Made by a program: the position numbers and the translations under genes
Part shown: piece by piece, positions 1,846 to 47,710 of the stretch
How the letters are laid out: the number at the start of each line of letters is the position of its first letter
How positions within the stretch are numbered: position 1 is the stretch's first letter
Notes under the pieces: model-generated
What the model saw: only the letters and a program-made list of their open reading frames with translations
What the model was told of the DNA's origin: nothing
The model's database searches: none
Sequence record: MK482689.1
Origin: Escherichia phage vB_EcoM_LMP33
Length of the DNA stretch: 64,000 bases
Reading direction: 5' to 3' (one strand)

Positions 1846-1871
1846 GTTGACAATGTACTTGACAAGGTGTT
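1846..1871. promoter_or_regulatory. conserved 24-bp dual-TTGACA motif (TTGACAATGTACTTGACAAGGTGT), copy 1
   Basis: In the divergent intergenic region between the DNA polymerase gene and the plus-strand cluster; near-identical copy at 47687-47710. Confidence 0.5.
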
Positions 1872-2043
1872 AATCTTTGCGAAGTGGGTTTTTACTTAAA
1901 AGGTTACTTAACAGTTTAACTATACAGATACTTTAAAACTCTTAAAAGATTATTTAATAGCTTTTAAAAAGCTTTAAAGTATAACGTATAGAATACGTTA
2001 AGATAAAAGATTAAAACTTAATAGTTACTTAAAAGAGGCTTAC

Positions 2044-2466
2044 ATGCAGAAAATGTTTGTTCACCCAGACATAGCTGACTTTGTTAGAGCTTTGCAGAAG
2101 TTGGAAGAACTTGACATTGCTGCTCAACGGGAATATGCTCACCATCACAGGAGAATGGTTGATATACAACATGAAATAGAGTTGTCTGAAAACTATGAAG
2201 ATGACTTAAAATGCTCTGTATTTGAGCATATGAAAGATGTTGCTACAGCGAGACGTAAAGCTAAAGACACAGTTGCTTTACTAGATTCTCTTAAAAAGAG
2301 GTTGCAAAGTGGTACAGACCTGTGTAATCTAGCGTCACTGATTAATGATGTTGAAACTTCTTGGGATAGACATTACTATCCACGTTCTGAAAAGACACTT
2401 GACTTTTCTTCATCCGAAAACTTAAAATGTTCTAGAAAGAAACTTAACCAACTGAGAGAGAAATAA
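2044..2466 (+). CDS. hypothetical protein
   Basis: 140-aa ORF, first gene after divergent promoter region; no recognisable motif. Confidence 0.4.
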   Translation: MQKMFVHPDIADFVRALQKLEELDIAAQREYAHHHRRMVDIQHEIELSENYEDDLKCSVFEHMKDVATARRKAKDTVALLDSLKKRLQSGTDLCNLASLINDVETSWDRHYYPRSEKTLDFSSSENLKCSRKKLNQLREK

Positions 2467-2467
2467 T

Positions 2468-3280
2468 ATGAATACTACTGTAGACCAGATGCTTGAAGAA
2501 AAAGGTATTGACGAAGCATTCTTAATCAATGCCGTAGAAAGCATGGCTATGATTCTTCGTGGAAACAACTACACAGAACAGTTTATGCCTGCAAGCTATA
2601 ACCTGCCTAAAGACAAGTCTGATAACGGTGCTTTTGCAGAACAGGTTAATATGATGCTGTGTGACAAAACACTTGCTTTAGCATCTATTGTTGTAGGTGT
2701 TGATGCTCTTGCAGAGTTCATTTTTTATGAGATGCAGAAAAATGACTATATTGCCATGACCTCTGAAGAAAAAGACTCGCTACTGCTCTTAGATAATAAT
2801 GAGCTAGTTGACCTGTTAATTTCGTCAACGAGTGCTGTTATGGCTGCTCTTGAGAAGCGAATGGAAGAGAAGCTGTCACGATATGAAAAGCTTGATTGGG
2901 GTGTAGAGGAATTAAACCCACGAATCAAAGAGATTATCCAGCAAACCAAAGATTCTCTAGAAGAAGCTGTGAAAGATGATTCTGTAGCTGATGTAGAACC
3001 ACTTCAGGTGAAAGTTGCATTGATGATTCCAGCCATCTCTACGATGATGAATATCGTTGCACTAATCCAGCTTTCACAGATGATGGGCACAAGCATTGAG
3101 TTCATTGAGAGTATGACTGGTGGTGTGAGTATGCAAGCAATCAATGATGTTCTGGTGAGCATTGGTGCTTCAATCATTGAAGAGAAGCTGCGCATTAACT
3201 TTGGTGATGATTTTGTGAAGCAAATCTCAGCTATGGCTGAAAAAGAGTATTCACAGACTAATACTGACCAACTGCACTAA
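2468..3280 (+). CDS. hypothetical protein
   Basis: 270-aa ORF tightly coupled to upstream ORF; followed by hairpin plus T-run terminator. Confidence 0.45.
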   Translation: MNTTVDQMLEEKGIDEAFLINAVESMAMILRGNNYTEQFMPASYNLPKDKSDNGAFAEQVNMMLCDKTLALASIVVGVDALAEFIFYEMQKNDYIAMTSEEKDSLLLLDNNELVDLLISSTSAVMAALEKRMEEKLSRYEKLDWGVEELNPRIKEIIQQTKDSLEEAVKDDSVADVEPLQVKVALMIPAISTMMNIVALIQLSQMMGTSIEFIESMTGGVSMQAINDVLVSIGASIIEEKLRINFGDDFVKQISAMAEKEYSQTNTDQLH

Positions 3281-3300
3281 GTCTTTATAAAAACTTACAA

Positions 3301-3323
3301 GCCTCCTTAGTTGGGGGCTTTTT
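3301..3323 (+). terminator. intrinsic terminator (GCCTCC..GGGGGC hairpin + TTTTT)
   Basis: GC hairpin followed by T-run immediately after stop of 2468..3280. Confidence 0.5.
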
Positions 3324-3342
3324 AGTAATTAAGGGAGATAGA

Positions 3343-4086
3343 ATGAGTAATATTATCGCATTTACTGGAAAGGCGCGTTCTGGAAAAGACACCTCATGTT
3401 CTATTGTTAAGAATATTCTAGAAGATGAGTATGGCTACAATGTTGCAGTAATGGCCTATGCAGACAACCTTAAACTCTCTGCATCAAAGATATTTGACTT
3501 GACTTGGAATGACCTGTACGGTGAAACTAAAGAGACTCCACAGGTTTTTGATTTATCATACCCTGAACTGATGTTCAAAGTCACAGAAGCTATGGAGTTT
3601 ACTTTCAGAGGTGAACGTTATCATACGGACTTTAAACTTATGTCAGAGTTAACCGGACGACTGATTATGGAACTAAAGAAGGTTGCTAAACCAACTTTAT
3701 TAACACGTCTGGGGTTTAGTAAAAAGTATAAATTCTCATCAAGACAGGTTCAACAGATTTGGGGTACTGAAGTTATCCGTAAAGTTATGGGTGACAAATT
3801 CTGGGCTAAAGACCTCGAAAAACGAATGGCAAATTTCTTTGACGTTTGCTCACTTAAGAATCAATACGGTGTTGTTTTAATCAGTGACTTAAGGTTTGAC
3901 TCTGAAGCTGAGTGGCTGAGCAGATTTGCACACCAAACTATCGAAGTAAAAAGAGACAATGTGGATAAGGTTTCGTCACATGTTTCAGAAAATGGGATTT
4001 CTACCAAATATGCGCGTGACATTATTCATAATAATGGTACTCTTGCAGACCTTGAGAACAAGCTAAGAGCCATCATTAAAGTTTAA
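3343..4086 (+). CDS. deoxynucleoside monophosphate kinase (T4 gp1-like)
   Basis: N-terminal P-loop FTGKARSGKDT resembling T4 dNMP kinase SGVKRSGKDT; length about 247 aa; sits in the nucleotide-metabolism module. Confidence 0.55.
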   Translation: MSNIIAFTGKARSGKDTSCSIVKNILEDEYGYNVAVMAYADNLKLSASKIFDLTWNDLYGETKETPQVFDLSYPELMFKVTEAMEFTFRGERYHTDFKLMSELTGRLIMELKKVAKPTLLTRLGFSKKYKFSSRQVQQIWGTEVIRKVMGDKFWAKDLEKRMANFFDVCSLKNQYGVVLISDLRFDSEAEWLSRFAHQTIEVKRDNVDKVSSHVSENGISTKYARDIIHNNGTLADLENKLRAIIKV

Positions 4087-4094
4087 AAGAGAGA

Positions 4095-4295
4095 ATGAAG
4101 ATGAGAGTAAAAGACAATTTTAAAGTTATTGACCACCGTTTAGTGGAACTCTCATCTCTTTCCAATGAGGTAATGATTGAACGTCTTAAGAGAGTTGAAT
4201 CAAGAAGGAAAGAGATTGCAGATGAAATTCATGAACTGGACAAGATTGAAAATGGATTGAAGGCAGAACTACAACGAAGAGGTGCTAATGTCTAA
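4095..4295 (+). CDS. hypothetical small protein
   Basis: 66-aa charged ORF overlapping start of primase-helicase. Confidence 0.3.
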   Translation: MKMRVKDNFKVIDHRLVELSSLSNEVMIERLKRVESRRKEIADEIHELDKIENGLKAELQRRGANV

Positions 4296-6676: not shown

Positions 6677-6682
6677 TAATAT

Positions 6683-6711
6683 TTGACAATAGAGTATCAA
6701 CAAATTAGAAT
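6683..6711 (+). promoter_or_regulatory. sigma70-like promoter (TTGACA-N17-TAGAAT)
   Basis: TTGACA at 6683-6688, 17-nt spacer, TAGAAT at 6706-6711, upstream of SSB gene. Confidence 0.45.
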
Positions 6712-20208: not shown

Positions 20209-21101
20209 GAGAGAAAACTATGAAAACATCTATCCGTGTTACAGTTCATTCACCAACTAAAGGAACTCATGAAGAAGAGTTTAACATCATCCAATTTCCT
20301 TCTGGTGAGATTGGTGGGCACTTTTCGCCAGAGTTTGTTGATTTCACTGCTTATGCAGCATCATCCATCAACAATGTGATTATGATTGTAAAAGGTTATG
20401 ATAAGGATACATTGTTTGCTGTGGCACTTGCTAAAGAAGCAATTGATGATTTAATTCCTCATGATTATGCTTTAAAGACTGTCATCTTTTACTACTTACC
20501 AAATGCACGTTATGACCGTCACATGTTTAAAGGCGACGCAGCAGCTTTAAAGGTTTTTGCTAAACAGGTAAATGCAATGGGATTTGGTGCAGTCTGTGCA
20601 GTTGACCCTCACAGTTACGTTCCAGATAACCTGTTTAACTGCTTCCAGAGTATTCCTCAAAAGGAGATTGCAGTTCACTACGCAAATGACCCACTGATTG
20701 ATTACTTAGTAGCCCCAGATGCAGGTGCTGCTAAGAAGATTGCAGAGACTGCTAAAGAGGTGGATAAACCATACATCACAATGTCTAAGGTGCGTAACCT
20801 TAAGACTGGTGAAATTACTGGTATGCGAATCCTTGACGATGTTGATTTGACAGATAAAACTGTCATGATTCTGGATGATATTTGTGATGGAGGTCGAACC
20901 TTCATAGAAGCAGCCAAACATCTTCGTGAAGCAGGTGCAAAACGTGTGGAACTCTATGTAACTCATGGTATTTTCTCTAAAGATGTTGAAAACTTGCTTG
21001 ACAATGGTATTGACCATATCTACACTACAAACTCTTTAGGGGAAGCTAAAGACCGTGGCTTAACACATTATAGCCAAGTTACTGTAGCAAACCTTGATTA
21101 A
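20205..21101 (+). CDS. ribose-phosphate pyrophosphokinase-like protein (PRPP synthetase family; possible ADP-ribose pyrophosphokinase)
   Basis: 298 aa with a PRTase-type nucleotide-binding motif VMILDDICDGGRTF; directly upstream of a NAMPT-like gene. Confidence 0.6.
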   Translation: MREKTMKTSIRVTVHSPTKGTHEEEFNIIQFPSGEIGGHFSPEFVDFTAYAASSINNVIMIVKGYDKDTLFAVALAKEAIDDLIPHDYALKTVIFYYLPNARYDRHMFKGDAAALKVFAKQVNAMGFGAVCAVDPHSYVPDNLFNCFQSIPQKEIAVHYANDPLIDYLVAPDAGAAKKIAETAKEVDKPYITMSKVRNLKTGEITGMRILDDVDLTDKTVMILDDICDGGRTFIEAAKHLREAGAKRVELYVTHGIFSKDVENLLDNGIDHIYTTNSLGEAKDRGLTHYSQVTVANLD

Positions 21102-21146: not shown

Positions 21147-22928
21147 ATGACTAAATCACTTTATGCAGTACCAGCAGGTTTAAATGCAGATGCTTACAAA
21201 TCTGGTCATGTTTACCAGTATCCTAGCGCAACAGAGTACTTGATGTTCAATCTGACACCACGTAGCGACAAATGGTTTAACAGCCCCTTAGCAATTGACG
21301 GTGTAGTGGCTTTTGGTATTCAACGTTTTGTTAAAGATTACTTGATAGACCACTGGAATGCCACTTTCTTTGAACGTGATAAAAAAGAAGCCATTGATGA
21401 AATCTTAGAAGTCATGAATGGTGTTCTGGGTAAAGATGCTATCGGTCGAGAGCATTGGGAAGCACTTCACGACTTAGGTTATCTACCAGTTGAAGTATAC
21501 GCTGTAGAAGAAGGCACAGTTGTTCCAATGCGTGTCCCGATGATTGTCTTTCAGAACACTGTTTCAGGTTTTCATTGGGTAGCAGGTTATCTGGAAGATG
21601 CTTTCTCTGCTGAAATTTGGAAGGCTTGCACCATTGCAACTATTGCATTGCATTACAAACGCATCTGTAAGAAGTGGGCTGACCTTACTTGTGACAATGA
21701 CTTACATTTACCTTATCAGTGCCATGATTTTGCTATGCGTGGTATGTCCGGCTTTACTGATGACGCATTTAACGCTGTAGGTCACTTAACCAGCTTTAAA
21801 GGGACTGATAGCTTCCCTGCTGTATACACGGCTAAACGAATCTATGGACAGTCCTACCCAATCTCTGATATTGGTAGTTCTGTACCAGCCACTGAGCACT
21901 CTGTAATGTGTGCAAACATTGCTTGGGAAGGTGGTAATGAGTTGATTGAAGAAGAAAGACGCTTTAAAGGTGAGTTACAAACCTTCCGTCGTTTCTTAAC
22001 AGAAACTTACCCAACAGGTATTGCAAGCATTGTTTCAGACACTTATAACTTCTGGAGAACTGTGTCAGAAATTTTACCAGCACTCCGTAAAGAAATTATG
22101 GAACGTGATGGCAAACTGGTAATTCGTCCTGACTCTGGAGACCCTGTACATATTGTCACAGGTTATAAAGCAATCCACTTAGAATGTGCTAAGAAGGCTT
22201 ATTACGAGCACCTAAGCAAGCTGGAAGCCAGTGACACAATGTTGAATGCTGTTCTTAACATGAAGCTTGAAAACATCAACTATGGTATTGCTGGATGGCT
22301 ACTGTCAGAAGGCTACGAAATGGTTGTTGATAGAGAAGACTTTGAAGTTGCTGACACAGTGATGTTGAAGAACGCTTATATGGTTGGCTCTGCAAACGTT
22401 GTAACACGCCCTGTAGCAGAGATTGATGGAGCTATTAAGACCTTGTATAACATCTTTGGAGGAACTATCAACTCTAAAGGTTTTAAGGTACTGGATGAGC
22501 ACATTGGCCTTATCTATGGCGACTCTATCACGTTGGAACGTGCAAACGAAATCCTGAAGCGCCTGTATGAAATGGGTTTTGCAAGCTCTAACGTAGTGTT
22601 TGGCGTAGGCTCTTACACTTACCAGTACATGACTCGTGACACCTTTGCATTTGCTGTCAAAGCAACCCTTGCAAGCATTGGTGGTAAAGAGATTATGCTT
22701 GCAAAAGACCCTAAAACAGATAGTGGTGTTAAGAAGTCTGCTTTTGGTGGTGTAGCACCTATGTGGGATGGTGAAAATCTGAAAGCTGTAGATGGCTATG
22801 GGTTCCAGAGCTTTGCAGATGCACTTGAACATCCAGCTTGTGCTTTACGTCTAGTCTTTAGTGACTCTGAGCAGTTCGGCTACACAACTCTTGGTGATAT
22901 TCGAAATAATATTGACAAGCAGCTTTAA
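21147..22928 (+). CDS. nicotinamide phosphoribosyltransferase-like protein (NadV/NAMPT family)
   Basis: 593 aa; N-terminus NADAYKSGHVYQYP resembles the NAMPT TDSYKxxHxxQYP signature; length fits. Confidence 0.65.
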   Translation: MTKSLYAVPAGLNADAYKSGHVYQYPSATEYLMFNLTPRSDKWFNSPLAIDGVVAFGIQRFVKDYLIDHWNATFFERDKKEAIDEILEVMNGVLGKDAIGREHWEALHDLGYLPVEVYAVEEGTVVPMRVPMIVFQNTVSGFHWVAGYLEDAFSAEIWKACTIATIALHYKRICKKWADLTCDNDLHLPYQCHDFAMRGMSGFTDDAFNAVGHLTSFKGTDSFPAVYTAKRIYGQSYPISDIGSSVPATEHSVMCANIAWEGGNELIEEERRFKGELQTFRRFLTETYPTGIASIVSDTYNFWRTVSEILPALRKEIMERDGKLVIRPDSGDPVHIVTGYKAIHLECAKKAYYEHLSKLEASDTMLNAVLNMKLENINYGIAGWLLSEGYEMVVDREDFEVADTVMLKNAYMVGSANVVTRPVAEIDGAIKTLYNIFGGTINSKGFKVLDEHIGLIYGDSITLERANEILKRLYEMGFASSNVVFGVGSYTYQYMTRDTFAFAVKATLASIGGKEIMLAKDPKTDSGVKKSAFGGVAPMWDGENLKAVDGYGFQSFADALEHPACALRLVFSDSEQFGYTTLGDIRNNIDKQL

Positions 22929-27098: not shown

Positions 27099-27159
27099 AT
27101 TTGTATTTTGTGCAGAGTGCTGTATAATTGTTGTCACGATAAACTAAACAGGAGAACCA

Positions 27160-31195: not shown

Positions 31196-31264
31196 GAAAC
31201 TCTGTAGGATATTCACAATAGCCTAAGCCTTTCTTATCTGGTAAATTTTTCAGGTAAGGAGGGC

Positions 31265-31448
31265 TTTTTCATTTCAGAATTGTGCAGGTAGAGTTCTGTA
31301 GAGAAATCTGTAGAGAGAATTTTGAACTCCAAAGAGAAAATTCATTTTCAAACTGTGCAGATAATCTCCAAAGAGCTTTTTCATTTTCAAAACGTGCAGA
31401 CCACACTCAGGTCGGGCAAGAAAAATCATTTTAGATTTGTGCAGGTAG
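31265..31448. repeat. four direct repeats (A/T-run)TCATTT(T)CA(A/G)A(A/C)(T/C)(T/G)GTGCAG, plus interleaved TCTGTAGAGA and CTCCAAAGAG duplicates
   Basis: Copies ending in GTGCAG at about 31287, 31360, 31400 and 31446; no credible ORF in the region. Confidence 0.6.
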
Positions 31449-31460
31449 GTTTTTATAGAG

Positions 31461-31503
31461 AGCCAGACCAACCCCTCTCCCCCTCTTACTCCCCCTCTCC
31501 CCA
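31461..31503. other. polypyrimidine C-rich tract (CCCCTCTCCCCCTCTTACTCCCCCTCTCCCC)
   Basis: Unusual C-rich low-complexity run in an AT-rich genome, immediately after the repeat cluster. Confidence 0.5.
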
Positions 31504-31654
31504 AAAGTCAAGAGAAAAATTTGTAGCGGATTGAAAAATAATTCTTGATTTGTGTTCTGTTTTGTGGTAGTTGTGTGCGCCCGTTTCATTACAGTTTTGC
31601 CAAAAATATTTTTAAAATTTTTTCTTGACTCTTTGAACGTGGTTATCTAGTATT

Positions 31655-31716
31655 TGCATCAACGGGGAGGGAATGACCTTCCCCACTAAATAAAGTCCTA
31701 AACTGGAGATTCAAAA
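31655..31716 (+). promoter_or_regulatory. type A leader element (hairpin GGGGAGGG-AATGA-CCTTCCCC + conserved RBS), preceded by TTGACT-N17-TAGTAT
   Basis: Conserved CAACGGGGAGGGAATGACCTTCCCCACTAAATAAAGTCCTAAACTGGAGATTCAAAAATG; one of 7 copies. Confidence 0.55.
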
Positions 31717-32100: not shown

Positions 32101-32186
32101 AGTACTTTACAAGGGGCTTATAGTTCGATAAAGTAAGCCCCAGATAAAGAGCTTTACCACTCAATCCTAAATTGGAGAACTTAAAA
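32101..32186 (+). promoter_or_regulatory. type B leader element (hairpin GGGGCTTA..TAAGCCCC + AGATAAAGAGCTTTACCACT + conserved RBS)
   Basis: Begins within the stop region (..AATAAAGTACTTTACA) of the upstream ORF; possible TTTACA-N17-TAAAGT promoter overlapping the hairpin; one of 6 copies. Confidence 0.5.
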
Positions 32187-32480
32187 ATGGCTATTATCAA
32201 AAACGTTGTAATTACTGCAAAGACTCGTGATGACGCTCGCGTTATGGCTAAAAAGTTATGCGGGAAAGTGGTTGACAACGGAAAACAATCTGCTGTAAGG
32301 TGGGGCGTGAAGGTTGATAAACAGTTGAAGTTAAAAAATTCACCGATAAACCTTTTTACATGTGTAAACACTATCGGGAAGACAAATGTATACACGAAAA
32401 AGGCATACATTAGACGCGTAGCATTAACATCCCCCATTCGTACAATGAGAAGTTATGCAAAGCTGAAAATTAACAAATAA
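32187..32480 (+). CDS. hypothetical basic protein (cassette ORF 2)
   Basis: 97 aa from ATG at 32187 (MAIIKN...), the start conserved within the leader repeat; track start at 32172 is a TTG. Confidence 0.45.
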   Translation: MAIIKNVVITAKTRDDARVMAKKLCGKVVDNGKQSAVRWGVKVDKQLKLKNSPINLFTCVNTIGKTNVYTKKAYIRRVALTSPIRTMRSYAKLKINK

Positions 32481-32565
32481 AGTACTTTACAGGGGGCTTA
32501 AAAGCTGATATCTTAAGCCCCAGATAAAGAGCTTTACCACTAAATCCTAAACTGGAGATTCAAAA
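32481..32565 (+). promoter_or_regulatory. type B leader element
   Basis: AGTACTTTACAGGGGGCTTAAAAGCTGATATCTTAAGCCCCAGATAAAGAGCTTTACCACTAAATCCTAAACTGGAGATTCAAAAATG. Confidence 0.5.
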
Positions 32566-33078
32566 ATGAAAACTGTAGACGCTACCTTTGAAGTTGTAAA
32601 AGAAAAATTTTCCATCATTTACGAAGCAGTTAATTGCTTTGAAGCAAGCCATAATCTTGATAATTGGGAATTTACAGATGACCATCAAGGCGGTGTGACG
32701 ATTAAAAATCCTAGCTGTCAGCGTAATGAATTTAAATATGCAATCCCTTTACATTACAGCCTTAAACAGCTTTCAAGTGACTATGCAAAACAAGGCCGGG
32801 AAAACCCATCAAAAGAGGCTTACATCAGCTTACAGAAAGAACTAGAAAGAGATTTAGAGGCTTCAGAATATAACATCGCCGCGAAAGTTGTAGATGCAAA
32901 CGGTAGCACGGTTTTAGAGAGTTTTTATATTGGTTATGCTTTCGATTGGTGCTATCGTGACGGCGATGATTTAGAGGATAGACTAAAAGAAGAGGTGAAC
33001 AACGCAGACGCAGAATCTGAAGTATTAGAACGTTTGGAATCGTTGAAAGACTCAGTGATGAATATCTTTAAGAACTAA
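32566..33078 (+). CDS. hypothetical acidic protein (cassette ORF 3)
   Basis: 170-aa ORF after type B leader. Confidence 0.45.
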   Translation: MKTVDATFEVVKEKFSIIYEAVNCFEASHNLDNWEFTDDHQGGVTIKNPSCQRNEFKYAIPLHYSLKQLSSDYAKQGRENPSKEAYISLQKELERDLEASEYNIAAKVVDANGSTVLESFYIGYAFDWCYRDGDDLEDRLKEEVNNADAESEVLERLESLKDSVMNIFKN

Positions 33079-33170
33079 ATAGATTTCTTTACACGGGGTT
33101 ACCAGACTGATAAGATAGCCCCAGATAAAGAGCTTTATTCAAATCAACCCTTAAACTAGGAGATTCTAAA
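33079..33170 (+). promoter_or_regulatory. type B leader element (divergent variant)
   Basis: ..CACGGGGTTACCAGACTGATAAGATAGCCCCAGATAAAGAGCTTTATTCAAATCAACCCTTAAACTAGGAGATTCTAAAATG. Confidence 0.45.
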
Positions 33171-33467
33171 ATGAAATTATCAAATAAAGTCCGTGAAAAT
33201 TTAAGCAAGTTACTTAATAAAATTGATTTCATTGAAACATCAAGGAATAGTCATGATGTTATGGAATGGTTACACGGAAAAATCAAAGGCCGTCGTGTAG
33301 TGATTTGCTTATGGAACAGTTGCAGGGAGTATAAAAAACCTGTATTGCAAGTCAATATTTATGATGATACTTTTAAAAGTCCTGTAAAGTCTAAAAGCGA
33401 TTTATTAGAATCCTATGAGATAACTGTAAATGGCAAAGTATCACGTAAAGAGGAAACACCATGTTAA
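33171..33467 (+). CDS. hypothetical protein (cassette ORF 4)
   Basis: 98-aa ORF. Confidence 0.4.
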   Translation: MKLSNKVRENLSKLLNKIDFIETSRNSHDVMEWLHGKIKGRRVVICLWNSCREYKKPVLQVNIYDDTFKSPVKSKSDLLESYEITVNGKVSRKEETPC

Positions 33468-33793
33468 TGACTGGTATCACTGCAATCATTGCCATTTTCG
33501 CGCTATATAAGGCATATAAAGCCTATAATCTGGCAAGTAAGGCAATCACACAACAGGTTAATAATAACCTTGTAATGAGCTTTCTAGAGCGTTTAAGTGA
33601 TGAACAATTAAAACGGCTAGAAATGAGCTTTAGATTCAGGGCGAGAACTTATCAAATCAGTGACATTTTCAAAGATAATTTTCAATTAGTCGATGATTAT
33701 AATTCTCTGATAAATGCTTTAAATATTAGTGACTTAAAAGATTATCACGCTGTAATTGTTCAAGAATTGAGCAAACGAAAACAAAACTGTTGA
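33461..33793 (+). CDS. hypothetical membrane protein (cassette ORF 5)
   Basis: 110 aa, N-terminal TM helix (MLMTGITAIIAIFALY); start overlaps the upstream stop; no leader repeat. Confidence 0.4.
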   Translation: MLMTGITAIIAIFALYKAYKAYNLASKAITQQVNNNLVMSFLERLSDEQLKRLEMSFRFRARTYQISDIFKDNFQLVDDYNSLINALNISDLKDYHAVIVQELSKRKQNC

Positions 33794-33882
33794 CACTGAT
33801 TTTTAGATAGATTAAATTACACATCAACGGGGAGGTAATAACCTCCCTACTAAATAAAGTCCTTAAACTAGGAGATTCAAAA
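33785..33882 (+). promoter_or_regulatory. type A leader element with sigma70-like promoter (TTGACA-N17-TAAATT) + hairpin + RBS
   Basis: TTGACA 33790-33795, TAAATT 33813-33818, hairpin GGGGAGGTAATAACCTCCC, then conserved TAAACTAGGAGATTCAAAAATG. Confidence 0.6.
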
Positions 33883-34155
33883 ATGTATACTACTAACAAC
33901 GGTCGTACTTTAAATGTCACTCTACGTCACTATGTTGATGGTGTAATGTGCTTTGATGATTTACAAGCTGAGCAACACATCTTAGATTGGCAAGTAGCAG
34001 GACTCCAAAAAACTGCTACCGGATACGGGAAAAAGATTCCAACTAGCTGGAAAGTACACTATGAAGGCCGTTTGCGCAGAATTTATCAAGATGTGCAAAG
34101 CAATAGCGCATCGAGTTACATTATAGTAAAAGGCAAAAAACTGCATTTAATGTAA
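33883..34155 (+). CDS. hypothetical protein (cassette ORF 6)
   Basis: 90-aa ORF. Confidence 0.4.
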   Translation: MYTTNNGRTLNVTLRHYVDGVMCFDDLQAEQHILDWQVAGLQKTATGYGKKIPTSWKVHYEGRLRRIYQDVQSNSASSYIIVKGKKLHLM

Positions 34156-34241
34156 AGTACTTTACAAGGGGCTTATAGTTCGATAAAGTAAGCCCCAGAT
34201 AAAGAGCTTTACCACTAAATCCTAAATTGGAGAACTTAAAA
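34156..34241 (+). promoter_or_regulatory. type B leader element
   Basis: Near-identical to the copy at 32101-32186. Confidence 0.5.
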
Positions 34242-34646
34242 ATGGCTATTAATAACCGTGAATTATCAATTTTAAAAGCACGTTTGACCGTTAACCGGAT
34301 TAATGTTATCACGTCATCAGCACCAGATGAAACACTGCAAAACATTATTGGGAAGATTCAAAGTGTTATCTTAGACGTTGAAAGCGTAAAAAATTCATTG
34401 GCTGACGTTGCAGCAGGTATCACACTAGACGGTGCGCAATATGAAATGTCCGACATGTTAGGCAAATCTAAGGTAATGAATAAAGAGTTAGATTTGAAAA
34501 TGTTCCGATTTGCTGTTAAAGTGTGGCTATCTGTCGAGTATGATGCTAACTTTGCAATCGCTGACTTTTTCGCCACTTGGTTGCAGCGTAATTTGACTAA
34601 TCATGACTTCCGCGATATCTGTGATGCAATTTATGCAGAACTCTAA
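34242..34646 (+). CDS. hypothetical protein (cassette ORF 7)
   Basis: ATG at 34242 (MAINNREL...); track start at 34227 is a TTG. Confidence 0.45.
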   Translation: MAINNRELSILKARLTVNRINVITSSAPDETLQNIIGKIQSVILDVESVKNSLADVAAGITLDGAQYEMSDMLGKSKVMNKELDLKMFRFAVKVWLSVEYDANFAIADFFATWLQRNLTNHDFRDICDAIYAEL

Positions 34647-34655
34647 AAAATTTTG

Positions 34656-34747
34656 TTGACACTGGTTTTTAGATAGATTAAATTACACATCAACGGGGAG
34701 GGAATGACCTTCCCCACTAAATAAAGTCCTAAACTGGAGATTCAAAA
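34656..34747 (+). promoter_or_regulatory. type A leader element with sigma70-like promoter (TTGACA-N17-TAAATT)
   Basis: TTGACACTGGTTTTTAGATAGATTAAATTACACATCAACGGGGAGGGAATGACCTTCCCC... Confidence 0.6.
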
Positions 34748-34951
34748 ATGGCTATTATTAATGGTTTAACCATTGAAACTACACACATCAAAGATATCAA
34801 AGTTGGTGATATAGTCCTTTCCCACGGCGTAGAAAAAACTGTCACTGCAAAGGATATCAAAGAGGATTCTTTCATGGGTAGGACTCTCTTCGGTGATTCT
34901 TATTGCTTAGGCTATCTTGCAGTTTTAAAAGTTGTCAAAAATAACAAATAA
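34748..34951 (+). CDS. hypothetical small protein (cassette ORF 8)
   Basis: 67 aa (MAIINGLTIE...). Confidence 0.4.
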   Translation: MAIINGLTIETTHIKDIKVGDIVLSHGVEKTVTAKDIKEDSFMGRTLFGDSYCLGYLAVLKVVKNNK

Positions 34952-35037
34952 AGTACTTTACAAGGGGCTTAAAAGTTGATAACTTAAGCCTCAGATAAAG
35001 AGCTTTACCACTAAATCCTAAACTGGAGATTCTAAAA
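34952..35037 (+). promoter_or_regulatory. type B leader element
   Basis: AGTACTTTACAAGGGGCTTAAAAGTTGATAACTTAAGCCTCAGATAAAGAGCTTTACCACTAAATCC... Confidence 0.5.
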
Positions 35038-35286
35038 ATGATGAACTACTTTAACATTCCCGATACCTGTAGATTATTGACACAAGAAGAAAATTTGGGT
35101 AAACCTTTCATTTACCACATGCCAGATAACACGGCAAAAACTTATAGTTACAATGTTAACCGTTTCACCGCATACGCTGCAAAGAACGGCTATAGGTTGG
35201 TTACTCAAAAAGTGATGCTGGTTACAATCGCTGACGAGGTTCCTACGGTTGCAGTTAAACTAATTTTCTCAAAGAAAGTTAAATAA
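35038..35286 (+). CDS. hypothetical protein (cassette ORF 9)
   Basis: 82-aa ORF. Confidence 0.4.
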   Translation: MMNYFNIPDTCRLLTQEENLGKPFIYHMPDNTAKTYSYNVNRFTAYAAKNGYRLVTQKVMLVTIADEVPTVAVKLIFSKKVK

Positions 35287-35373
35287 AGTACTTTACAAGG
35301 GGCTTATAGTTCGATAAAGTAAGCCCCAGATAAAGAGCTTTACCACTAAATCCTTAAACTAGGAGATTCAAAA
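35287..35373 (+). promoter_or_regulatory. type B leader element
   Basis: Near-identical to 32101-32186 and 34156-34241. Confidence 0.5.
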
Positions 35374-35916
35374 ATGAAATGCTATCACGGAACTACTCAA
35401 GAAAATTTCCTCAACCTGATTAATAACGGTGATAAACCATCAGGCGCATGGAATTGTTCGGATATGGACGGCAATTTTTACGTGTATCCAGAAAATAAAA
35501 TCTATGGCGACGATGAGGAAGAAATAGCATCAGAGGGCATTCAGCAAGCTCTAGGCAATGCCACTATCACCGCAGCTTTTCAGATGAAGACTCAAAATAT
35601 TGTTATCTTAGAACTCGATATTCCAGAGGATGAGCTAAATGATGATTATTCTTGTGATAATATGTCGAGTGTAGCAAGTTTTACAGAGTACTTTGATGTA
35701 AATTGGATTAAAAAGGTCTATACAACAGAGTTTAATGCGATGTTTTCGCCTTTTTGTCTTCCTTCATTGGATAACCCAAATTTAAACTATCTTGACGAGT
35801 CTCTGGAGCTTCTTGCTAAAAGTGTACAACAGTCGGACAGTATTCATGTTTTTTGTGACATCATGGATACACTGACAGGAAACATTGCAGAAGAGGATTT
35901 AAAGAGCTTTTTCTAA
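35374..35916 (+). CDS. hypothetical acidic protein (cassette ORF 10)
   Basis: 180-aa ORF. Confidence 0.45.
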   Translation: MKCYHGTTQENFLNLINNGDKPSGAWNCSDMDGNFYVYPENKIYGDDEEEIASEGIQQALGNATITAAFQMKTQNIVILELDIPEDELNDDYSCDNMSSVASFTEYFDVNWIKKVYTTEFNAMFSPFCLPSLDNPNLNYLDESLELLAKSVQQSDSIHVFCDIMDTLTGNIAEEDLKSFF

Positions 35917-35982
35917 AAACCTATGCAATCACCTTATAAACACTAATCAGCCCCTTGTAGGGGCTTTTAGAGGGCTTAAATC

Positions 35983-36216
35983 ATGCTTACAACCGTTTAT
36001 CTCATCCTCTCAATTTGTAATGGCCATTCATGTGACTTTAAAGGGCTTGAAGAGTTTACAGGAAGTAAAGAAAATGCTATTCAAGTTTGCCAGATAGCAA
36101 GGAAAGACTATCCCGCTAGTGATGATATACAATGTTACTTTAAGACAGAAGATGACGACGGAATCTATTTCGACAGTGTTGACGGTCAGTATGAAATTAT
36201 CATTGAAAAAGACTAG
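35983..36216 (+). CDS. hypothetical small protein (cassette ORF 11)
   Basis: 77 aa; preceded by a different hairpin (AGCCCCTTGTAGGGGCT), not a type A/B leader. Confidence 0.35.
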   Translation: MLTTVYLILSICNGHSCDFKGLEEFTGSKENAIQVCQIARKDYPASDDIQCYFKTEDDDGIYFDSVDGQYEIIIEKD

Positions 36217-36229
36217 ACAAGCCTGATAA

Positions 36230-36308
36230 AAATCTGTAAATTGTCAATCAACGGGGAGGGAATGACCTTCCCCACTAAATAAAGTCCTTAAACTAGGAGA
36301 TTCAAAAA
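36230..36308 (+). promoter_or_regulatory. type A leader element
   Basis: CTGTAAATTGTCAATCAACGGGGAGGGAATGACCTTCCCCACTAAATAAAGTCCTTAAACTAGGAGATTCAAAAAATG. Confidence 0.55.
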
Positions 36309-36650
36309 ATGGCTTATGTAACCGTAATTACCGATAAAGCTGGCGCATCTTGGTCAACTCAGGTTAGTGATAAGATGTCACCTATGCAGTGCCTAAAATA
36401 CTTTGAACAGTGGAACAAAGGCGAGGACACAAGCCCCTTTCAAGTGATGCAGATTATCCATGTAGACAACGAAGGGAATAAAACGACGCTGAATAGTGAG
36501 TACTATGCAAGCCGTTTTGAAACGAGAAGTAAAACAATGAAACTTTTACGTGAATCCGGTTATGCCCATATCGCCGCGTTAATCTGGGATGACCTGCTAA
36601 AAAGTCAGCGTATCAGCTATGTAAAACCTGAAAAAATATTCATCAGTTAA
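36309..36650 (+). CDS. hypothetical protein (cassette ORF 12)
   Basis: 113-aa ORF. Confidence 0.45.
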   Translation: MAYVTVITDKAGASWSTQVSDKMSPMQCLKYFEQWNKGEDTSPFQVMQIIHVDNEGNKTTLNSEYYASRFETRSKTMKLLRESGYAHIAALIWDDLLKSQRISYVKPEKIFIS

Positions 36651-36805
36651 TCAATAACTTACAAAAAAACTTTTAAAAAAGTGTTGACAATACCCATTGA
36701 CATTGGTAACTTTGTTCGAGGGGGTTATCTAAAAGGGATTCACTTAAAAGATTCTTTATAGATAAGCTCAAAAAATTACTTGCAATCAACTATCAAAACA
36801 AGTAA

Positions 36806-36870
36806 ATTACTAATCAACGGGAAGGCAATAACCTCCCCACTAAATAAAGTCCTAAACTGGAGATTCTAAA
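36806..36870 (+). promoter_or_regulatory. type A leader element (variant hairpin GGGAAGGCAATAACCTCCCC)
   Basis: Preceded at 36685-36710 by tandem TTGACA boxes (TTGACAATACCCATTGACA). Confidence 0.5.
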
Positions 36871-37401
36871 ATGAACAAATTTCAAGCTATCAACTTCATT
36901 CGTTCAAATGCTGTAATGTCTAAGCCTGTAAAAGATACATACGAATTCCGTTGTAATGGGGTACATTTCGCAACAATCACCAAATCAGAAAACGGGGCTT
37001 ATTACGTTCATCGTCGTAATGTTTCAACCGTTGTAGTCTCTCACTTTATGCAAGCTGTAGCGGAATTATTACCGTTATTCTTAGAGATTTACTTAGATGA
37101 GTGTAAAAACGTTCACAACCACGTTAAAAGCCTTTTAAACGGTTATAAAATGGCTTATGAACGCTCTATCAAGTCCTTAAACAAGTTTTACAATGCACCT
37201 GCAAATACTGTTTCAATGGCTTATGATGTAAACGGTGAGTTAGTTAGTCTCTTTAAAGTGGAAGAAATTAAGCTGTATAATTTACGTCCTAGTGGTTACT
37301 CTAAGACTCTTGGTGAAGGTTTATCCTTTAATATCAAGAACTTAGAAAAAACTTTAAAAGACATTGAAAAAGATATTGACGAGACAATCAAAAGTCTGTA
37401 A
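36871..37401 (+). CDS. hypothetical protein (cassette ORF 13)
   Basis: 176-aa ORF. Confidence 0.45.
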   Translation: MNKFQAINFIRSNAVMSKPVKDTYEFRCNGVHFATITKSENGAYYVHRRNVSTVVVSHFMQAVAELLPLFLEIYLDECKNVHNHVKSLLNGYKMAYERSIKSLNKFYNAPANTVSMAYDVNGELVSLFKVEEIKLYNLRPSGYSKTLGEGLSFNIKNLEKTLKDIEKDIDETIKSL

Positions 37402-37467
37402 ATTGTCAATCAACGGGGAGGGAATGACCTTCCCCACTAAATAAAATCCTAAACTGGAGTTATCAAG
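37400..37467 (+). promoter_or_regulatory. type A leader element
   Basis: CTGTAAATTGTCAATCAACGGGGAGGGAATGACCTTCCCCACTAAATAAAATCCTAAACTGGAG... Confidence 0.55.
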
Positions 37468-37731
37468 ATGGAAAACGTAGAATTAACCACACTTTTACAA
37501 ATTGCAACCGACAAAGAAGATGTAGCATTATTTCACCGTATCGAAAGTGATTTGTTCAATGGTGAAATCATCAAAGAATCTTACGAAGTTGTCGGATTCA
37601 AAGATGGTAAAGCGTTTGGCTTTTTTGACCTCGATAAAGGCAACGCTGTTACAAAGTATGATGTTGTATCTTGTGAGATTCTTACAAAATACAACGAAAA
37701 AAGGCTTGCAACATACGCCAATATGCAGTAA
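37468..37731 (+). CDS. hypothetical protein (cassette ORF 14)
   Basis: 87-aa ORF. Confidence 0.4.
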   Translation: MENVELTTLLQIATDKEDVALFHRIESDLFNGEIIKESYEVVGFKDGKAFGFFDLDKGNAVTKYDVVSCEILTKYNEKRLATYANMQ

Positions 37732-37797
37732 ATTACTAATCAACGGGGGATGACCTCCCCCCCACTAAGTAAAGTCCTAAACTGGAGAATCTAAATT
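37731..37797 (+). promoter_or_regulatory. type A leader element (variant hairpin GGGGGATGACCTCCCCC)
   Basis: TAAATTACTAATCAACGGGGGATGACCTCCCCCCCACTAAGTAAAGTCCTAAACTGGAGAATCTAAATTATG. Confidence 0.5.
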
Positions 37798-38046: not shown

Positions 38047-39694
38047 TCGACGCAACGGGGCTAAATAGCCCCAGATACCTGAAAAGCTCCTTCTCATAGG
38101 GGCTTTTTTACGTCTATGTAATAGCCTCTATACAACCCTTTCCCTTTCCTTCCTAGAATCTATCCCACTAATTCGATAGAATCTATCTCATACCTTAAAA
38201 AGCAATAACTCTATAGTCTACTCTATAACCTTTTATCAAATCAACTTAAATAAAAGCCAATAACCCCAGAAAGGGGATGGCCCATTTAAATGCTCTATAA
38301 AGCTCTATAACAGCCTTATCAACCTAACTTAAGGGATTGCATTAACCAACCTTAAAAAGCTCTTTACAGGGCTTTATAGAGGCTTAAAAGAATCTTATAA
38401 GGTTATAAGCTTTATTATCTCGTTAGCTATCTTGTGAATATCTAAAAAGGGCTTGTTAGTGTCTTAAAAGTATGTTATAGGGGCTATAAAGTTACTTTGA
38501 AGTTGCTTAAAAGTTACGTAAATGCTAGCCCCCTTAACATTTTCTTAACAATTTCTTAACAATCCCTACATAGTTATGCTTGTTAGCAACTTGTTAGCCC
38601 CTTGTTAAATCTCTGTTAAGACAACGTAAAAGCCTTGTAAGAACCTTTGACATAGCCTTTAAAGCCCCTGTAAAGCCTTATAAAGAGGTATCTGTACAGT
38701 TGGGGTGTAATTACTAGGAAGAGGCTTAAAAGAGCTTATAAAGAGCTATAGAGAGCTTTTAAGAGGTATGTTTAGAGAATCACTAAGAGGGAAAGGGAAC
38801 GATAAGAAAAGAGTAGTGACCATGTTAATAGCTTGTTAAAAAGATTAAACACTTGTTAGAAACTTGTTAATTATCTTAACAAAATAACTCTTAAAAATTA
38901 ACTTGTTAGCTCTTGTTAGTCATCTGTTAAGATTCTGTAAAGCCTATGTATCAACTGTTAAGAACTTGTTACAACCTTGTTAGTTCTGTTAAGAATCTGT
39001 TAAGACCTCTGAAGAGATGTTAAGAACTTGAGAGAGTTGTTAAGGAATTGTTAATGATATTTAAAATTTTGCAAAGTACTTGTAAGGGAGTTGTTAAGGG
39101 CTACCAAGCAGATATACATCTTCTACAGATATTTTTCAGTTCCTTCAAAGACCCTAAAAAATGACTTGATAGTCCTATTTTATAAAAATTTTAAGATTCT
39201 GAATAATTACCTATACAGCCTTTCTAAAATACAGGTAATAACAGGCTTATAAGATACCTTGTTAGTACCGTGTTAGACCTTGTGAGATAAGGTCTGTGAA
39301 GATATTCCTGTTAAGTTTGTTAAAACAGTCTATATAGAGGCTTAGTAATACCTAGTGAACACCTATAGAGAGTGTCATAGCTAACCTAGAGATTAAGAGG
39401 TGTATAGGAGCTTCTAAGAGGGTATAGAGAGGTGGTTAAGGTGATTGTATAGGTTGTTAAGAAGGCTTGTTAGAGGGCTTGTTAGAAGGGTTATACAGAG
39501 GGCTATTAAGACCACTAGATAGATACTAAGATACTATATAGTACTATATAACTATATATAGAGAGTAAGCTTAAGAAGGTTGTTAAGAAGGGTAGATATT
39601 TTGTTCACATATGATGGTGACCCAGAGGTTGGGACAACCGATAAAATTTTATAAAAATTAAAAAGCCCCCAATTAAGGAGGCTCTTAAGATATT
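38047..39694. repeat. about 1.65-kb ORF-free region dense in short degenerate repeats ((C)TTGTTA(G/A), CTGTTAAG, TATAAAG, CTTAAAAG; tandem TTCTTAACAA x2 near 38543-38564)
   Basis: No ORF of 60 aa or more on either strand; dozens of TTGTTA(A/G)-type motifs; lies between convergent plus and minus gene clusters. Confidence 0.7.
39661..39686 (-). terminator. intrinsic terminator for minus-strand cluster
   Basis: On minus strand: AGCCTCC..GGGGGCT hairpin + TTTT just downstream of the stop at 39695. Confidence 0.45.
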
Positions 39695-41139: not shown

Positions 41140-41142
41140 CTC

Positions 41143-44563: not shown

Positions 44564-44582
44564 AGCTTTCTCCTTAGAAAAT

Positions 44583-44604
44583 AAAAAAGGCTCCCGAAGG
44601 AGCC
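44583..44604 (-). terminator. intrinsic terminator (GGCTCC-TTCG-GGAGCC + TTTTTT on minus strand)
   Basis: Perfect hairpin with UUCG loop downstream of the lysozyme gene. Confidence 0.55.
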
Positions 44605-44614
44605 TATGAAGATA

Positions 44615-45079
44615 TTACTTTGGGTATACACTGTCAAGATAAATGTCAGCTTCCATTCTACGTCTGTTTTTCAGACCGTTTGAAGTGACCTTCTTACCTT
44701 TGACTGTAACCTTGTTCCACCACTGCATAGCTTCTGCACAACCTACCTTATTACCAGCATTGTGGCGCTTGATAAATGTGGAATCCTGCATAGCTGTGAT
44801 ACCGATGTTGTATGTTTCACTTACAAGTGCATCGAACTCATTCTGAGTAGTTGGAACCTTGATAGCTTTGTTCACTGCTGCAACAAACTTCTCAACATCC
44901 GCGAGAAGATACTGTTCAGCTTGTTCAGCAGTAATTTTCATACCCATCTTAACAGGTTTTCCGTCAATACGGATTGTCCCATACCCGATTGTTGGGATTC
45001 CGGCAGAATCTTCGTAAGCCTCTAACTCCAGACCTTCGAAGAACTTAATAGCATCTAAACCTTTTCTTGAGAGTTGCAT
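44615..45079 (-). CDS. endolysin, lysozyme (glycoside hydrolase family 24-like)
   Basis: 154 aa; N-terminus GLDAIKFFEGLELEAYEDSAGIPTIGYGT is the T4/lambda-type lysozyme catalytic region. Confidence 0.75.
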   Translation of the reverse strand: MQLSRKGLDAIKFFEGLELEAYEDSAGIPTIGYGTIRIDGKPVKMGMKITAEQAEQYLLADVEKFVAAVNKAIKVPTTQNEFDALVSETYNIGITAMQDSTFIKRHNAGNKVGCAEAMQWWNKVTVKGKKVTSNGLKNRRRMEADIYLDSVYPK

Positions 45080-46212: not shown

Positions 46213-46580
46213 TTCTTTTCAGCCTCTAAATGTGCGTTTAGTCTAAAATAACCTTTGTGATTCGGAGATACATCACCAACGACAATACCTTTAACCTTAT
46301 AGCCTTTACCAATTACATACTGGATATCCATAAGGAATCTTCCAAGACCAACAATATGGAACATTGGGTATAATAGATTCTCAGAGTCTGGAATATTGAT
46401 TTCAGGTTTGTAGGTACGCTGTTCGCTTGTTGGTGTAATATCTTCTTCAGGCCATTTACTGAGTCTCCATGTCAAAGGTGTTGGGATAACATCATTAAGG
46501 TTGTACCTTTCACCATTTTGCACGGAATTGATATAGGATTGTAGGAAGCAATAAAAGTCTTTTGCACTCTTAGCTTTCAT
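46209..46580 (-). CDS. hypothetical protein, paralog of N-terminal domain of the Ig-like protein
   Basis: Shared motifs with the downstream protein N-terminus (DF..F...I..V..G.RY; Y.W.....L...E....YKP...P.S..LLY; MD(L/I)QY(A/V)I..GK.V). Confidence 0.4.
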   Translation of the reverse strand: MKAKSAKDFYCFLQSYINSVQNGERYNLNDVIPTPLTWRLSKWPEEDITPTSEQRTYKPEINIPDSENLLYPMFHIVGLGRFLMDIQYVIGKGYKVKGIVVGDVSPNHKGYFRLNAHLEAEKK

Positions 46581-46627
46581 TAAATATCCTTATAAATAGT
46601 TAAAGGGGCATAAGCCCCTATTCACAC

Positions 46628-47218
46628 TTAAGCTTTGGTCTTAAGTAGGTTCTTAAGTTTTTTAAGATTCATACTCTCATCAAACTTAAAACCAAATCCA
46701 TTGACATAATCAATGAACTCGGATTTCTTACTGAGTGACAATGCGTAACTCATATCAAAGTTCTTACTTGTTTCTGCGTCTGGACTAGAGTTCACATCAA
46801 ATGAAATTTCCGTAGGCTCTTGCTTACTTTTTCTCATATTATCAACCAACAAACATGTATAGTTTGCTGGATAGAAATTTACACTACCATCAACGTAGCT
46901 GTACTTATTATTATGGATAAGGTTGGAAAATACCTTAAGGAATGTTTCTGAGTCGTGGCAAACAAGTTTGAATTGGCTGCTCTCTCCAAGCGCAACTAAT
47001 GAATACGGACTTTCACTATCAAAGTCATAATTTGGATTCGATGCCGTTACTGTTACACGCATCAAGTTATTAGCAATAGTCTTCTGTTTAAAAGAATTTT
47101 GAACATAGTGAAGACCTCTACCACACTGATTGACTAGCTCTTTAAGTAGGTCATTTGCATATGGTGAATTAATTGATACAGAGCCATCACTATTGTAATT
47201 AAAACTTACTGTTAACAT
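46628..47218 (-). CDS. hypothetical protein
   Basis: 196-aa ORF. Confidence 0.4.
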   Translation of the reverse strand: MLTVSFNYNSDGSVSINSPYANDLLKELVNQCGRGLHYVQNSFKQKTIANNLMRVTVTASNPNYDFDSESPYSLVALGESSQFKLVCHDSETFLKVFSNLIHNNKYSYVDGSVNFYPANYTCLLVDNMRKSKQEPTEISFDVNSSPDAETSKNFDMSYALSLSKKSEFIDYVNGFGFKFDESMNLKKLKNLLKTKA

Positions 47219-47445
47219 TTTTCAGTTCTCCTGCGATTTATAATTTTGCTGCAATAGAGAAACGAAGTAAACTCACTGGAAGAAACCATTAAGTGTTGTT
47301 CACTAGATTGAGCCATTGCCCTGAAATACATTCCAGTCAAAGCATCGTAGTGACTATTCTTTCCAATTGAGGTTATATAGCCATGACTCTTTGCAGTTTT
47401 ATATAAATCTATAATATCTGCGATTTCTAATTGGGAACTACACAT
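47212..47445 (-). CDS. hypothetical protein
   Basis: 77-aa ORF. Confidence 0.3.
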   Translation of the reverse strand: MCSSQLEIADIIDLYKTAKSHGYITSIGKNSHYDALTGMYFRAMAQSSEQHLMVSSSEFTSFLYCSKIINRRRTEKC

Positions 47446-47609
47446 AGATAATCCTCTTGTCTTCTGTAATTTTGAAAGAACAGGTACAGACCAATTTCAG
47501 AGGATGAATAGTAGAGTAACTCTACCCTTTTTGATTCCTTACAGTGATTGGTATTTTTACCTTTCTTCGGGTTGTTTGATTTTCTCATTAAGTCTCCTTT
47601 GTAGAACAA
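47427..47609 (-). CDS. hypothetical small basic protein
   Basis: 60-aa ORF, first gene of minus-strand cluster. Confidence 0.3.
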   Translation of the reverse strand: MFYKGDLMRKSNNPKKGKNTNHCKESKRVELLYYSSSEIGLYLFFQNYRRQEDYLCVVPN

Positions 47610-47686
47610 GGCAGACCTACAGCTTAAGTAAGATGGTACAGTAATCCATACAACAAGTCAAGAACTATTGCAAGTTAAAAAAGTTG

Positions 47687-47710
47687 TTGACAAAGTACTT
47701 GACAAGGTGT
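47687..47710. promoter_or_regulatory. conserved 24-bp dual-TTGACA motif (TTGACAAAGTACTTGACAAGGTGT), copy 2
   Basis: In the divergent intergenic region between the minus-strand cluster start and 47837; 23/24 identity with copy 1. Confidence 0.5.

Follow-up and report, generated by a model that had tools for sequence, protein, structure and literature searches.

The window analyzed here is a stretch of 64,000 nucleotides from the genome of Escherichia phage vB_EcoM_LMP33 (sequence record MK482689.1), and the subject is a doubled TTGACA element that occurs in it at three sites. Over its first 6 kb the window has 100% identity to LMP25 (MK482688.1) and LMP34, both of the genus Felixounavirus (the Felix O1 group), and its orientation is the reverse complement of the LMP25 record. 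It starts inside the DNA polymerase gene and runs through replication and nucleotide-metabolism genes to many small early-type open reading frames (ORFs), followed by a non-coding stretch, a leftward cluster that includes the lysin gene, and tRNA and structural genes. The three sites occupy the longest intergenic regions of the phage. Site 1 is flanked by the start of the DNA polymerase gene (minus strand, ATG at 1786) and a plus-strand ORF at 2044, and site 2 by the start of a minus-strand ORF at 47588 and a plus-strand ORF at 47837; both regions are divergent, as the first-pass annotation of this DNA had described them, and are the counterparts of the divergent regions between genes 96/97 and 40/41 of Felix O1, respectively. 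Site 3 is not divergent and lies within a plus-strand cluster, between an ORF end at 36650 and an ORF start at 36871. The ORFs downstream belong to a replication and nucleotide-metabolism operon for site 1 (2044 onward), an operon with ORF41–42 homologues, tRNAs, and structural genes for site 2 (47837 onward), and a small early-type operon for site 3 (36871 onward).

The element had first been marked as a pair of 24-mers that differ at one base, and this is the case: TTGACAATGTACTTGACAAGGTGT at site 1 (1847–1870) and TTGACAAAGTACTTGACAAGGTGT at site 2 (47687–47710) are the only two matches in the window, against none in 100 shuffles and 0 expected by chance. The first-pass annotation gave the site 2 copy its correct position and the site 1 copy a position one base too low (1846–1869); the third tandem-TTGACA site that it mentioned exists, at 36684–36702 rather than 36685–36703, with a period of 13 bp instead of 12 bp. 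The pattern TTGACA-N4-9-TTGACA occurs three times in the window vs. 0.18 expected, and there is no further copy in the remaining 24 kb of the 88-kb genome. A motif search of the whole genome thus yields three dual sites, and the motif is kept in relatives.

All three sites, on the plus strand, share a common order of parts: an A-tract (AAAAAG plus 3–4 nt), TTGACA, 6–7 variable bases, a second TTGACA, 1–3 bases, TG, and a −10 hexamer. At site 1, a UP-element-like A-tract, aaaaaattataaaaagcaag (1827–1846), of which AAAAAGCAAG is invariant in relatives and the part farther upstream is variable, precedes the first TTGACA (1847–1852), which is also invariant in relatives and would be the −35. The second TTGACA (1859–1864) begins 12 bp after the first, inside the spacer, and an extended −10 (TGT plus TAATCT, 1868–1876) stands 18 bp from the first hexamer, with a predicted start site near 1882–1884. 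At site 2, the A-tract aaaaaagttg (47677–47686) is followed by the first TTGACA as putative −35 (47687–47692), the second in the spacer (47699–47704), and a −10 of TG plus TAGGCT (47708–47715), 17 bp after the first hexamer, with a predicted start site near 47721–47723. At site 3, an A/T tract resembling a full UP element, aaaaaaacttttaaaaaagtg (36663–36683), precedes the first TTGACA (36684–36689), again the putative −35; the second (36697–36702) begins 13 bp after it, and an extended −10 (TGG plus TAACTT, 36704–36712) lies 17 bp from the first hexamer, with a predicted start site near 36718–36720.

Conservation was assessed in Felix-type relatives sampled via neighboring proteins rather than via the motif; these span Felixounavirus and the SUSP-like and Moogle-like phages, the anchor-protein identity of the more distant ones being 85–93% at sites 1 and 2 and ~50% at site 3, and counts are over distinct sequences. 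In every Felix-type relative the hexamer pair is unchanged and its spacing is fixed at each site, while the bases between the hexamers vary. The second TTGACA is invariant in 33/33 distinct sequences with variable flanks: 10/10 at site 1 (bases 1854–1857 variable), 9/9 at site 2, and 14/14 at site 3 (four of the seven intervening bases variable). The intervening bases read ATGTAC, ATGCAC, ATGCGC, ATACAC, ATTCAC, AATAAC, AATCAC, or AAGCAC at site 1, and AAGTAC, AAGGAC, AATGAC, TTCCTC, or AGCCTC at site 2. What remains constant is the two hexamers, the C preceding the second, and TG..TA...T downstream, and the 23/24 identity of the two 24-mers overstates the conservation. The earlier claim of conservation beyond a −35 hexamer therefore stands for the second TTGACA and the −10 region, and not for the whole 24-mer.

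The first hexamer is exactly TTGACA, the sigma-70 −35 consensus, at all three sites and in all relatives. The −10 region in relatives is TGT/TGG plus TAATCT/TAGTCT at site 1, TAGGCT, TAGCCT, or TAAGTT at site 2, and TGG/TGA plus TAACTT/TAATGT/TAGATT at site 3. The extended −10 motif TGn is present at sites 1 and 3 with its n position variable (TGT/TGG; TGG/TGA), and at these two sites TG and the T, A, and T of TAnnnT are retained (TGnTAnnnT at site 1) while the remaining positions vary, which is the pattern expected of an extended −10 and supports that assignment. TAnnnT occurs 16–18 bp after the first hexamer in 33/33 Felix-type and 39/40 of the T4-like sequences described below (72/73 distinct sequences in total); at 15–19 bp after the second hexamer it occurs in 0/33 Felix-type sequences and in 0/73 overall, across four site families. 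Because TAnnnT stands at promoter distance from the first hexamer alone, the first would be the −35, and the second would not serve a promoter of its own. A pair of perfect, like-oriented −35 hexamers might otherwise suggest two overlapping sigma-70 promoters with starts 12 bp apart, an arrangement that we consider extremely improbable given that 0/73 sequences offer the second hexamer a −10 of its own; its role as an independent −35 is contradicted by the same count.

The promoter status of the three sites is supported by sequence pattern and conservation, and the earlier suggestion of a class-specific promoter gains support from the A-tract, the consensus −35, the TG-extended −10 at 17–18 bp, and retention in 33/33 relatives. 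Two of the loci were already predicted promoters. Site 2, which in Felix O1 reads TTGACAAAGCACTTGACAAGGTATAGGCT, was listed as P41, TTGACA(N15)TATAGG at 21515–21541 of Felix O1, with no other such promoter sequence in the Felix O1 40–41 or 96–97 regions (Whichard et al., 2010; PMC3185647); the first TTGACA of site 2 is the −35 of P41 (section 2.5 of that paper). Site 1 is annotated as a promoter, TTGACA-N18-TAATCT, in the GenBank record of phage AYO145A (KR014248), with the first hexamer as −35. P41 and the AYO145A feature thus denote the same loci as sites 2 and 1 and both predictions were based on similarity to TTGACA-N15-18-TATAAT; no second hexamer, third site, or conservation of these is mentioned in either source, and literature searches, including searches with motif strings, found no description of a conserved doubled hexamer. 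New here are the conservation of a doubled −35 and the recurrence of this doubling in T4-like phages.

The dual sites belong to a broader promoter type of this phage. The pattern AAAAAG-N3-TTGACA is enriched in the window (13 found vs. 1.5 expected) and appears to be a general promoter type here; its other members have one hexamer and better −10s (TAAATT, TAATAT, TATAGT, TATACT), so that the dual sites are, as judged from their predicted promoter parts, a sub-class with the weakest −10s. Kolesnikvirus Rouille, an Erwinia phage, has single-hexamer promoters at the positions of sites 1 and 2 (TTGACA-17-TACATT and TTGACA-16-TAGAAT), again with better −10s, and one dual site elsewhere in its genome, TTGACAttctacTTGACAggggcTAAAGT at 78101. 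A possible degenerate fourth member lies at 20986–21026 of the window, in coding DNA upstream of the nicotinamide phosphoribosyltransferase gene; it reads TTGAAA-N6-TTGACA-N6-TTGACC-N5-TACACT, with TACACT 17 bp from the middle hexamer.

The same layout recurs in unrelated phages. A scan of IMG/VR for AAAAAG-N3-TTGACA-N6-TTGACA matched at least 120 stretches, and the majority of the matches listed are not Felix-like; these follow the pattern ...AAAAAGTTGTTGACAAAGGGCTTGACA-tgtgt-TAAAGT... and are flanked by the genes gp46, gp47, gp55, UvsW, and UvsY of T4-like phages. The gp55 of this clade has 57–62% identity to gp55 of cyanophages, a pelagiphage, and Methylophilales phage Melnitz. The clade was re-sampled via gp55 alone, avoiding selection on the motif, and among the 51 distinct upstream sequences with the first TTGACA, an exact second TTGACA is present in 46. 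Of these 51, 44 have a period of 12 bp and 7 a period of 11 bp; in the latter, the gap to the −10 is 6 rather than 5, and the first hexamer remains 17 bp from TAnAGT. Across both phage groups the distance from the first hexamer to the −10 is steady at 17–18 bp whether the hexamers repeat at 11, 12, or 13 bp, the gap after the second hexamer compensating. Cultured relatives of the clade carry looser forms of the layout, and singleton IMG/VR matches outside the Felix-type and T4-like clades (L121, L135, L152, L164), possibly due to chance, were excluded from the evidence. The doubled hexamer is, by this conservation, under selection in two phage groups with different hosts and no evident common regulator. 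In the uncultured clade (IMG/VR stretches L209–L288; e.g., L146, 5952–6025), a strong sigma-70-type doubled-TTGACA promoter stands directly upstream of the late sigma gene gp55, where it might time gp55 by transcriptional interference.

UP elements and the extended −10 have known consensus sequences, and an extended −10 TGn can compensate for a weak −10. We regard it as probable, with some reserve, that the motif copies form the cores of rightward promoters for the host sigma-70 RNA polymerase, at which the second TTGACA would serve as an auxiliary docking site beside a weak −10. The first TTGACA would act as −35, the A-tract as a UP-like element, and TG with a weak TAnnnT, 17–18 bp away, as −10; the second TTGACA would be an extra spacer element at roughly −23 to −18, kept by selection and not a second promoter. 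It may be read by sigma region 4, i.e., by the polymerase itself, and such docking would raise polymerase capture or occupancy where the −10 is weak. Recognition by sigma region 4 is the most likely reading of the second hexamer, held loosely, because the hexamer matches the −35 consensus exactly, is oriented like the first, and is often preceded by the C typical of consensus −35 elements. That the polymerase is the reader is suggested by recurrence of the hexamer in unrelated phages and by its shifts of one or two bases while polymerase spacing is kept; the presence of the same layout in the unrelated T4-like clade likewise favors RNA polymerase over a phage-specific regulator.

Several observations weigh against promoters of this kind with a docking hexamer. 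The −10 hexamers (TAATCT, TAGGCT, and TAACTT at sites 1, 2, and 3) match TATAAT at only 3/6 positions each, below a threshold of at least 4/6, and a consensus promoter scan called none of the three dual sites, which it misses because of these weak −10s. At site 2, TG directly abuts the −10 with no one-base gap, and Felix O1 has TA there. We know of no RNA polymerase contact with a TTGACA at −23 to −18. The T4-like promoter is directed away from gp55, antisense into an upstream gene of ~120 amino acids and uvsW, an orientation with no obvious purpose. A scan of bacterial genomes gave 17 dual-layout matches in 185,579 species, and this is not a general bacterial design; the 17 matches are at about the level of chance among promoters that already have the A-tract and −35, and are uninformative on function. 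Literature searches found no transcription start site or RNA-seq data for Felixounavirus. Finally, reverse-transcription PCR (RT-PCR) in Felix O1 placed ORF41, 42, 97, and 98 at their maximum at 25 min, not early (Whichard et al., 2010). This timing sits poorly with a plain strong early promoter and better with some regulation.

Regulation is the core of an alternative, in line with the shared regulator binding site suggested by the first-pass annotation, in which the two TTGACA repeats form an operator for a trans-acting phage or host regulator, bound head-to-tail over the −35 and spacer and shutting off or timing the promoters. A fixed period of the direct repeat at each site, with the bases in between free to vary, is what a site bound by two subunits typically shows; the element marks just three of the many promoter-like sites of the phage, and the downstream genes in Felix O1 peak at 25 min rather than 5 min (Whichard et al., 2010). 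The sites are also followed by long, highly conserved leaders with palindromes. The predicted 5′ leader of site 1 (1877–2043, plus strand) is AT-rich, with seven CTNNNNAG octamers and the palindrome AACGTATAGAATACGTT (1983–1999); that of site 2 (47716–47836, plus strand) has six CTNNNNAG octamers, an inverted repeat (47769–47788), and the palindrome CTTAAAAGCCTTTTAAG (47798–47814). Octamer density in these leaders is 4–5 per 100 nt vs. a window average of 1.0. Both AT-rich leaders, 120–170 nt long, are nearly unchanged even in the more distant relatives, that of site 1 despite ~80% overall identity. In Moogle-like phages, the palindrome arms of the site 1 leader change from ACGTAT...ATACGT to ATGTAT...ATACAT, and this compensatory change of both arms points to an RNA hairpin or a binding site for a dimer.

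In the search for a candidate regulator, Pfam was run on 85 ORFs of unknown function, of which 67 lie in the window and 18 beyond it; none matched a sigma, anti-sigma, AsiA, MotA, Q, or CII family. The sole DNA-binding match, on which the operator might draw, is a 99-amino-acid XRE-type helix-turn-helix (HTH) protein, QBQ76364.1 (HTH_3, E = 5e-10), encoded outside the window (MK482688.1, 47251–47550). XRE proteins usually bind inverted repeats, which counts against an operator of direct repeats, and as a candidate reader QBQ76364.1 suits the leader palindromes better than the doubled hexamer. Furthermore, its homologue was not found in Rouille, which carries a dual site. The operator is also at odds with both repeats being exactly the sigma-70 −35 consensus, with a period that varies (11, 12, 13) by site or clade in such a way that compensation preserves polymerase spacing and not repeat spacing, and with conservation of the layout in T4-like phages with no evident regulator in common. 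On balance we consider an operator unlikely, while keeping it as a serious alternative to docking by the polymerase; it accounts for a large part of the same observations, as does the alternative −35 considered next. Other readers were sought by eye: for other sigma factors (sigma-54, sigma-32, sigma-28, sigma-E, and T4 gp55, TATAAATA), key bases are missing, a copy of TATAAATA at 47716–47723 not being conserved in relatives; and no site for the host factors CRP, FNR, LexA, Fis, or IHF, and no Pho box, fits.

The second TTGACA might instead become an alternative −35 after the phage has remodeled the host polymerase, paired with the −10 at 4–6 bp as in lambda Q-engaged complexes. The second hexamer does lie 4–6 bp upstream of the −10 in all cases, the element stands between −35 and −10, where the lambda Q-binding element sits, and the site 1 operon crosses many terminator-like hairpins, terminator read-through in Felix O1 being unexplained (Whichard et al., 2010). 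This scheme is nonetheless quite improbable: Pfam gave no Q-, AsiA-, or MotA-like protein, there is no conserved −10-like pause element 12 bp downstream (0/73 with TAnnnT 15–19 bp from the second hexamer), and the T4-like promoter is antisense, with no operon downstream.

A role outside transcription (origin repeats, primase sites, or packaging signals), or a neutral relic of a 12-bp duplication, has some points in its favor at site 1: the genes for DNA polymerase and primase are its neighbors, the region after it is AT-rich and conserved, and TTGTC occurs twice on the minus strand. There are, however, just two repeats per site and a full promoter layout at all three, the probable genome terminus and packaging-type repeats lie elsewhere (38100–39600), and a neutral relic would not stay invariant amid varying neighbors in two unrelated phage lineages. 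We give such explanations very little weight. Replication-origin iterons, with three or more copies of a 17–22-bp repeat by an AT-rich unwinding region, were rejected as a model, there being two 6-bp repeats per site.

A broader proposal, which we put forward only speculatively and consider rather unlikely, is that the second TTGACA is an unrecognized promoter element at ~−23 to −18, serving a non-canonical step and acquired independently by the Ounavirinae and by T4-like aquatic myoviruses. Its reader would be sigma region 4 of a remodeled or escaping polymerase, or a protein mimicking −35 recognition, and the element would control a few key promoters. The three dual promoters head replication, tRNA/structural, and early-type operons and are thus natural control points. 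Felix O1-type phages encode no RNA polymerase and no recognized polymerase modifier, and the timing of transcription is an acknowledged open question; temporal regulation in Felix O1 and read-through of its many terminators are described as not understood (Whichard et al., 2010). A second consensus −35 in the spacer, as strictly conserved as the −35 itself, falls outside the textbook promoter. If it only tunes promoter strength, it would extend promoter rules slightly and might be of use in designing strong synthetic promoters; if a modified polymerase or a new factor reads it, it offers an entry into the regulation of this phage group.

As far as predicted −10s allow, the dual motif serves the plus strand only. 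Read on the minus strand as a −35-like TTGTCA, it has no −10 at usable distance at site 1, where a TATAAT at a distance of 10 bp lacks conservation. At site 2 it could form TTGTCA-N18-AATAGT with TG (47693–47664, minus strand; the −35 here being the first TTGACAA of the motif in reverse complement), and the leftward cluster there already has a separate promoter-like site. The latter, TTGACT-17-TACCAT (47661–47633, minus strand), was found by the scan, is invariant in all relatives, and would serve the leftward cluster.

The phage also carries repeat-rich non-coding regions. At 38100–39600, a 1.5-kb non-coding stretch holds 56 short repeats of the form CTNNNNAG vs. ~15 at the window average, with the variants CTTGTTAG (ten copies), CTGTTAAG (six), and CTTAAAAG (four), many phased at 10–11 bp; it is retained in 256 relatives, mostly at 80–90% identity, below that of coding DNA. 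Several related genome records start inside this stretch (near window position 38528) or annotate a direct terminal repeat (DTR) or repeat_region there, which makes it the probable genome-terminus and packaging region. Its counterpart in Rouille is a 1.4-kb non-coding region (78078–79545) rich in TTCTAAG/TTCTAAA repeats, into which the dual-TTGACA promoter of that phage (78101) points. A 521-bp non-coding region at 31196–31716 contains TTTTCATTTTCA-N4-5-TGTGCAG in four tandem copies spaced by ~55 bp. Similar T-rich tracts with GTGCAG/TGCAG behind them occur after a terminator at ~27100 (27100–27140) and on the minus strand at 1820–1846, just upstream of the DNA polymerase start; these sequences may constitute a second promoter or control motif that is specific to the phage. 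Additionally, the small early-type ORFs at 32101–37797 are separated by repeated cassettes of ~86 bp, of two types. Type one comprises TTTACA-N17-TAAAGT with a GGGGCTTA...TAAGCCCC hairpin across the −10 and contains the 57-bp direct repeat of the Felix O1 paper; type two comprises ATCAACGGGGAGG...CCTCCCC, then ACTAAATAAAGTCCTAAACTGGAG and ATG. In a search of the whole window against Rfam, tRNAs were the only matches.

Among known systems, sigma-70 promoters with a UP element and extended −10 (e.g., rrnB P1 and the strong early promoters of T5 and T7) share with the dual sites the A-tract, TTGACA, a 17–18-bp spacer, TGn, and TAnnnT. They have no second consensus −35 in the spacer, whereas the dual sites combine a weak −10 (3/6) with an extra hexamer conserved like the −35. 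The sites bound by lambda CII and P22 C1 are TTGC-N6-TTGC direct repeats around the −35 of PRE, with a 10-bp period and a poor −35. Like the dual sites, they consist of direct repeats with TTG, located in the −35 region of a phage promoter; they differ from the dual sites in that the latter are built of hexamers with a 12–13-bp period and a perfect −35; together with the absence of a CII family match among the 85 ORFs, this led us to reject a CII/C1-type activator site. An OmpR/PhoB-type box, in which direct repeats of 10–11 bp replace the −35, was likewise rejected, the Felix-type period being 12 or 13 bp and the repeat itself a −35 consensus.

The other point of comparison is the lambda late promoter PR′, where a Q-binding element lies between −35 and −10, and where sigma region 4 of the paused complex engaged by Q contacts a second hexamer, TTGACT. 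In such complexes the −35-like TTGACT stands one base from a −10-like element. A test of the phage for a lambda Q-type arrangement gave no Q-family Pfam match among the 85 ORFs and, at 12 bp past the −10, no conserved TAnnnT; the placement of the element fits, and a novel Q-like protein is possible. The likeness to PR′ would lie in a functional element within the spacer and in sigma region 4 reading a further −35-like hexamer at an unusual distance; the difference is that in PR′ the second hexamer follows the first at 26 bp and acts together with a −10-like pause element.

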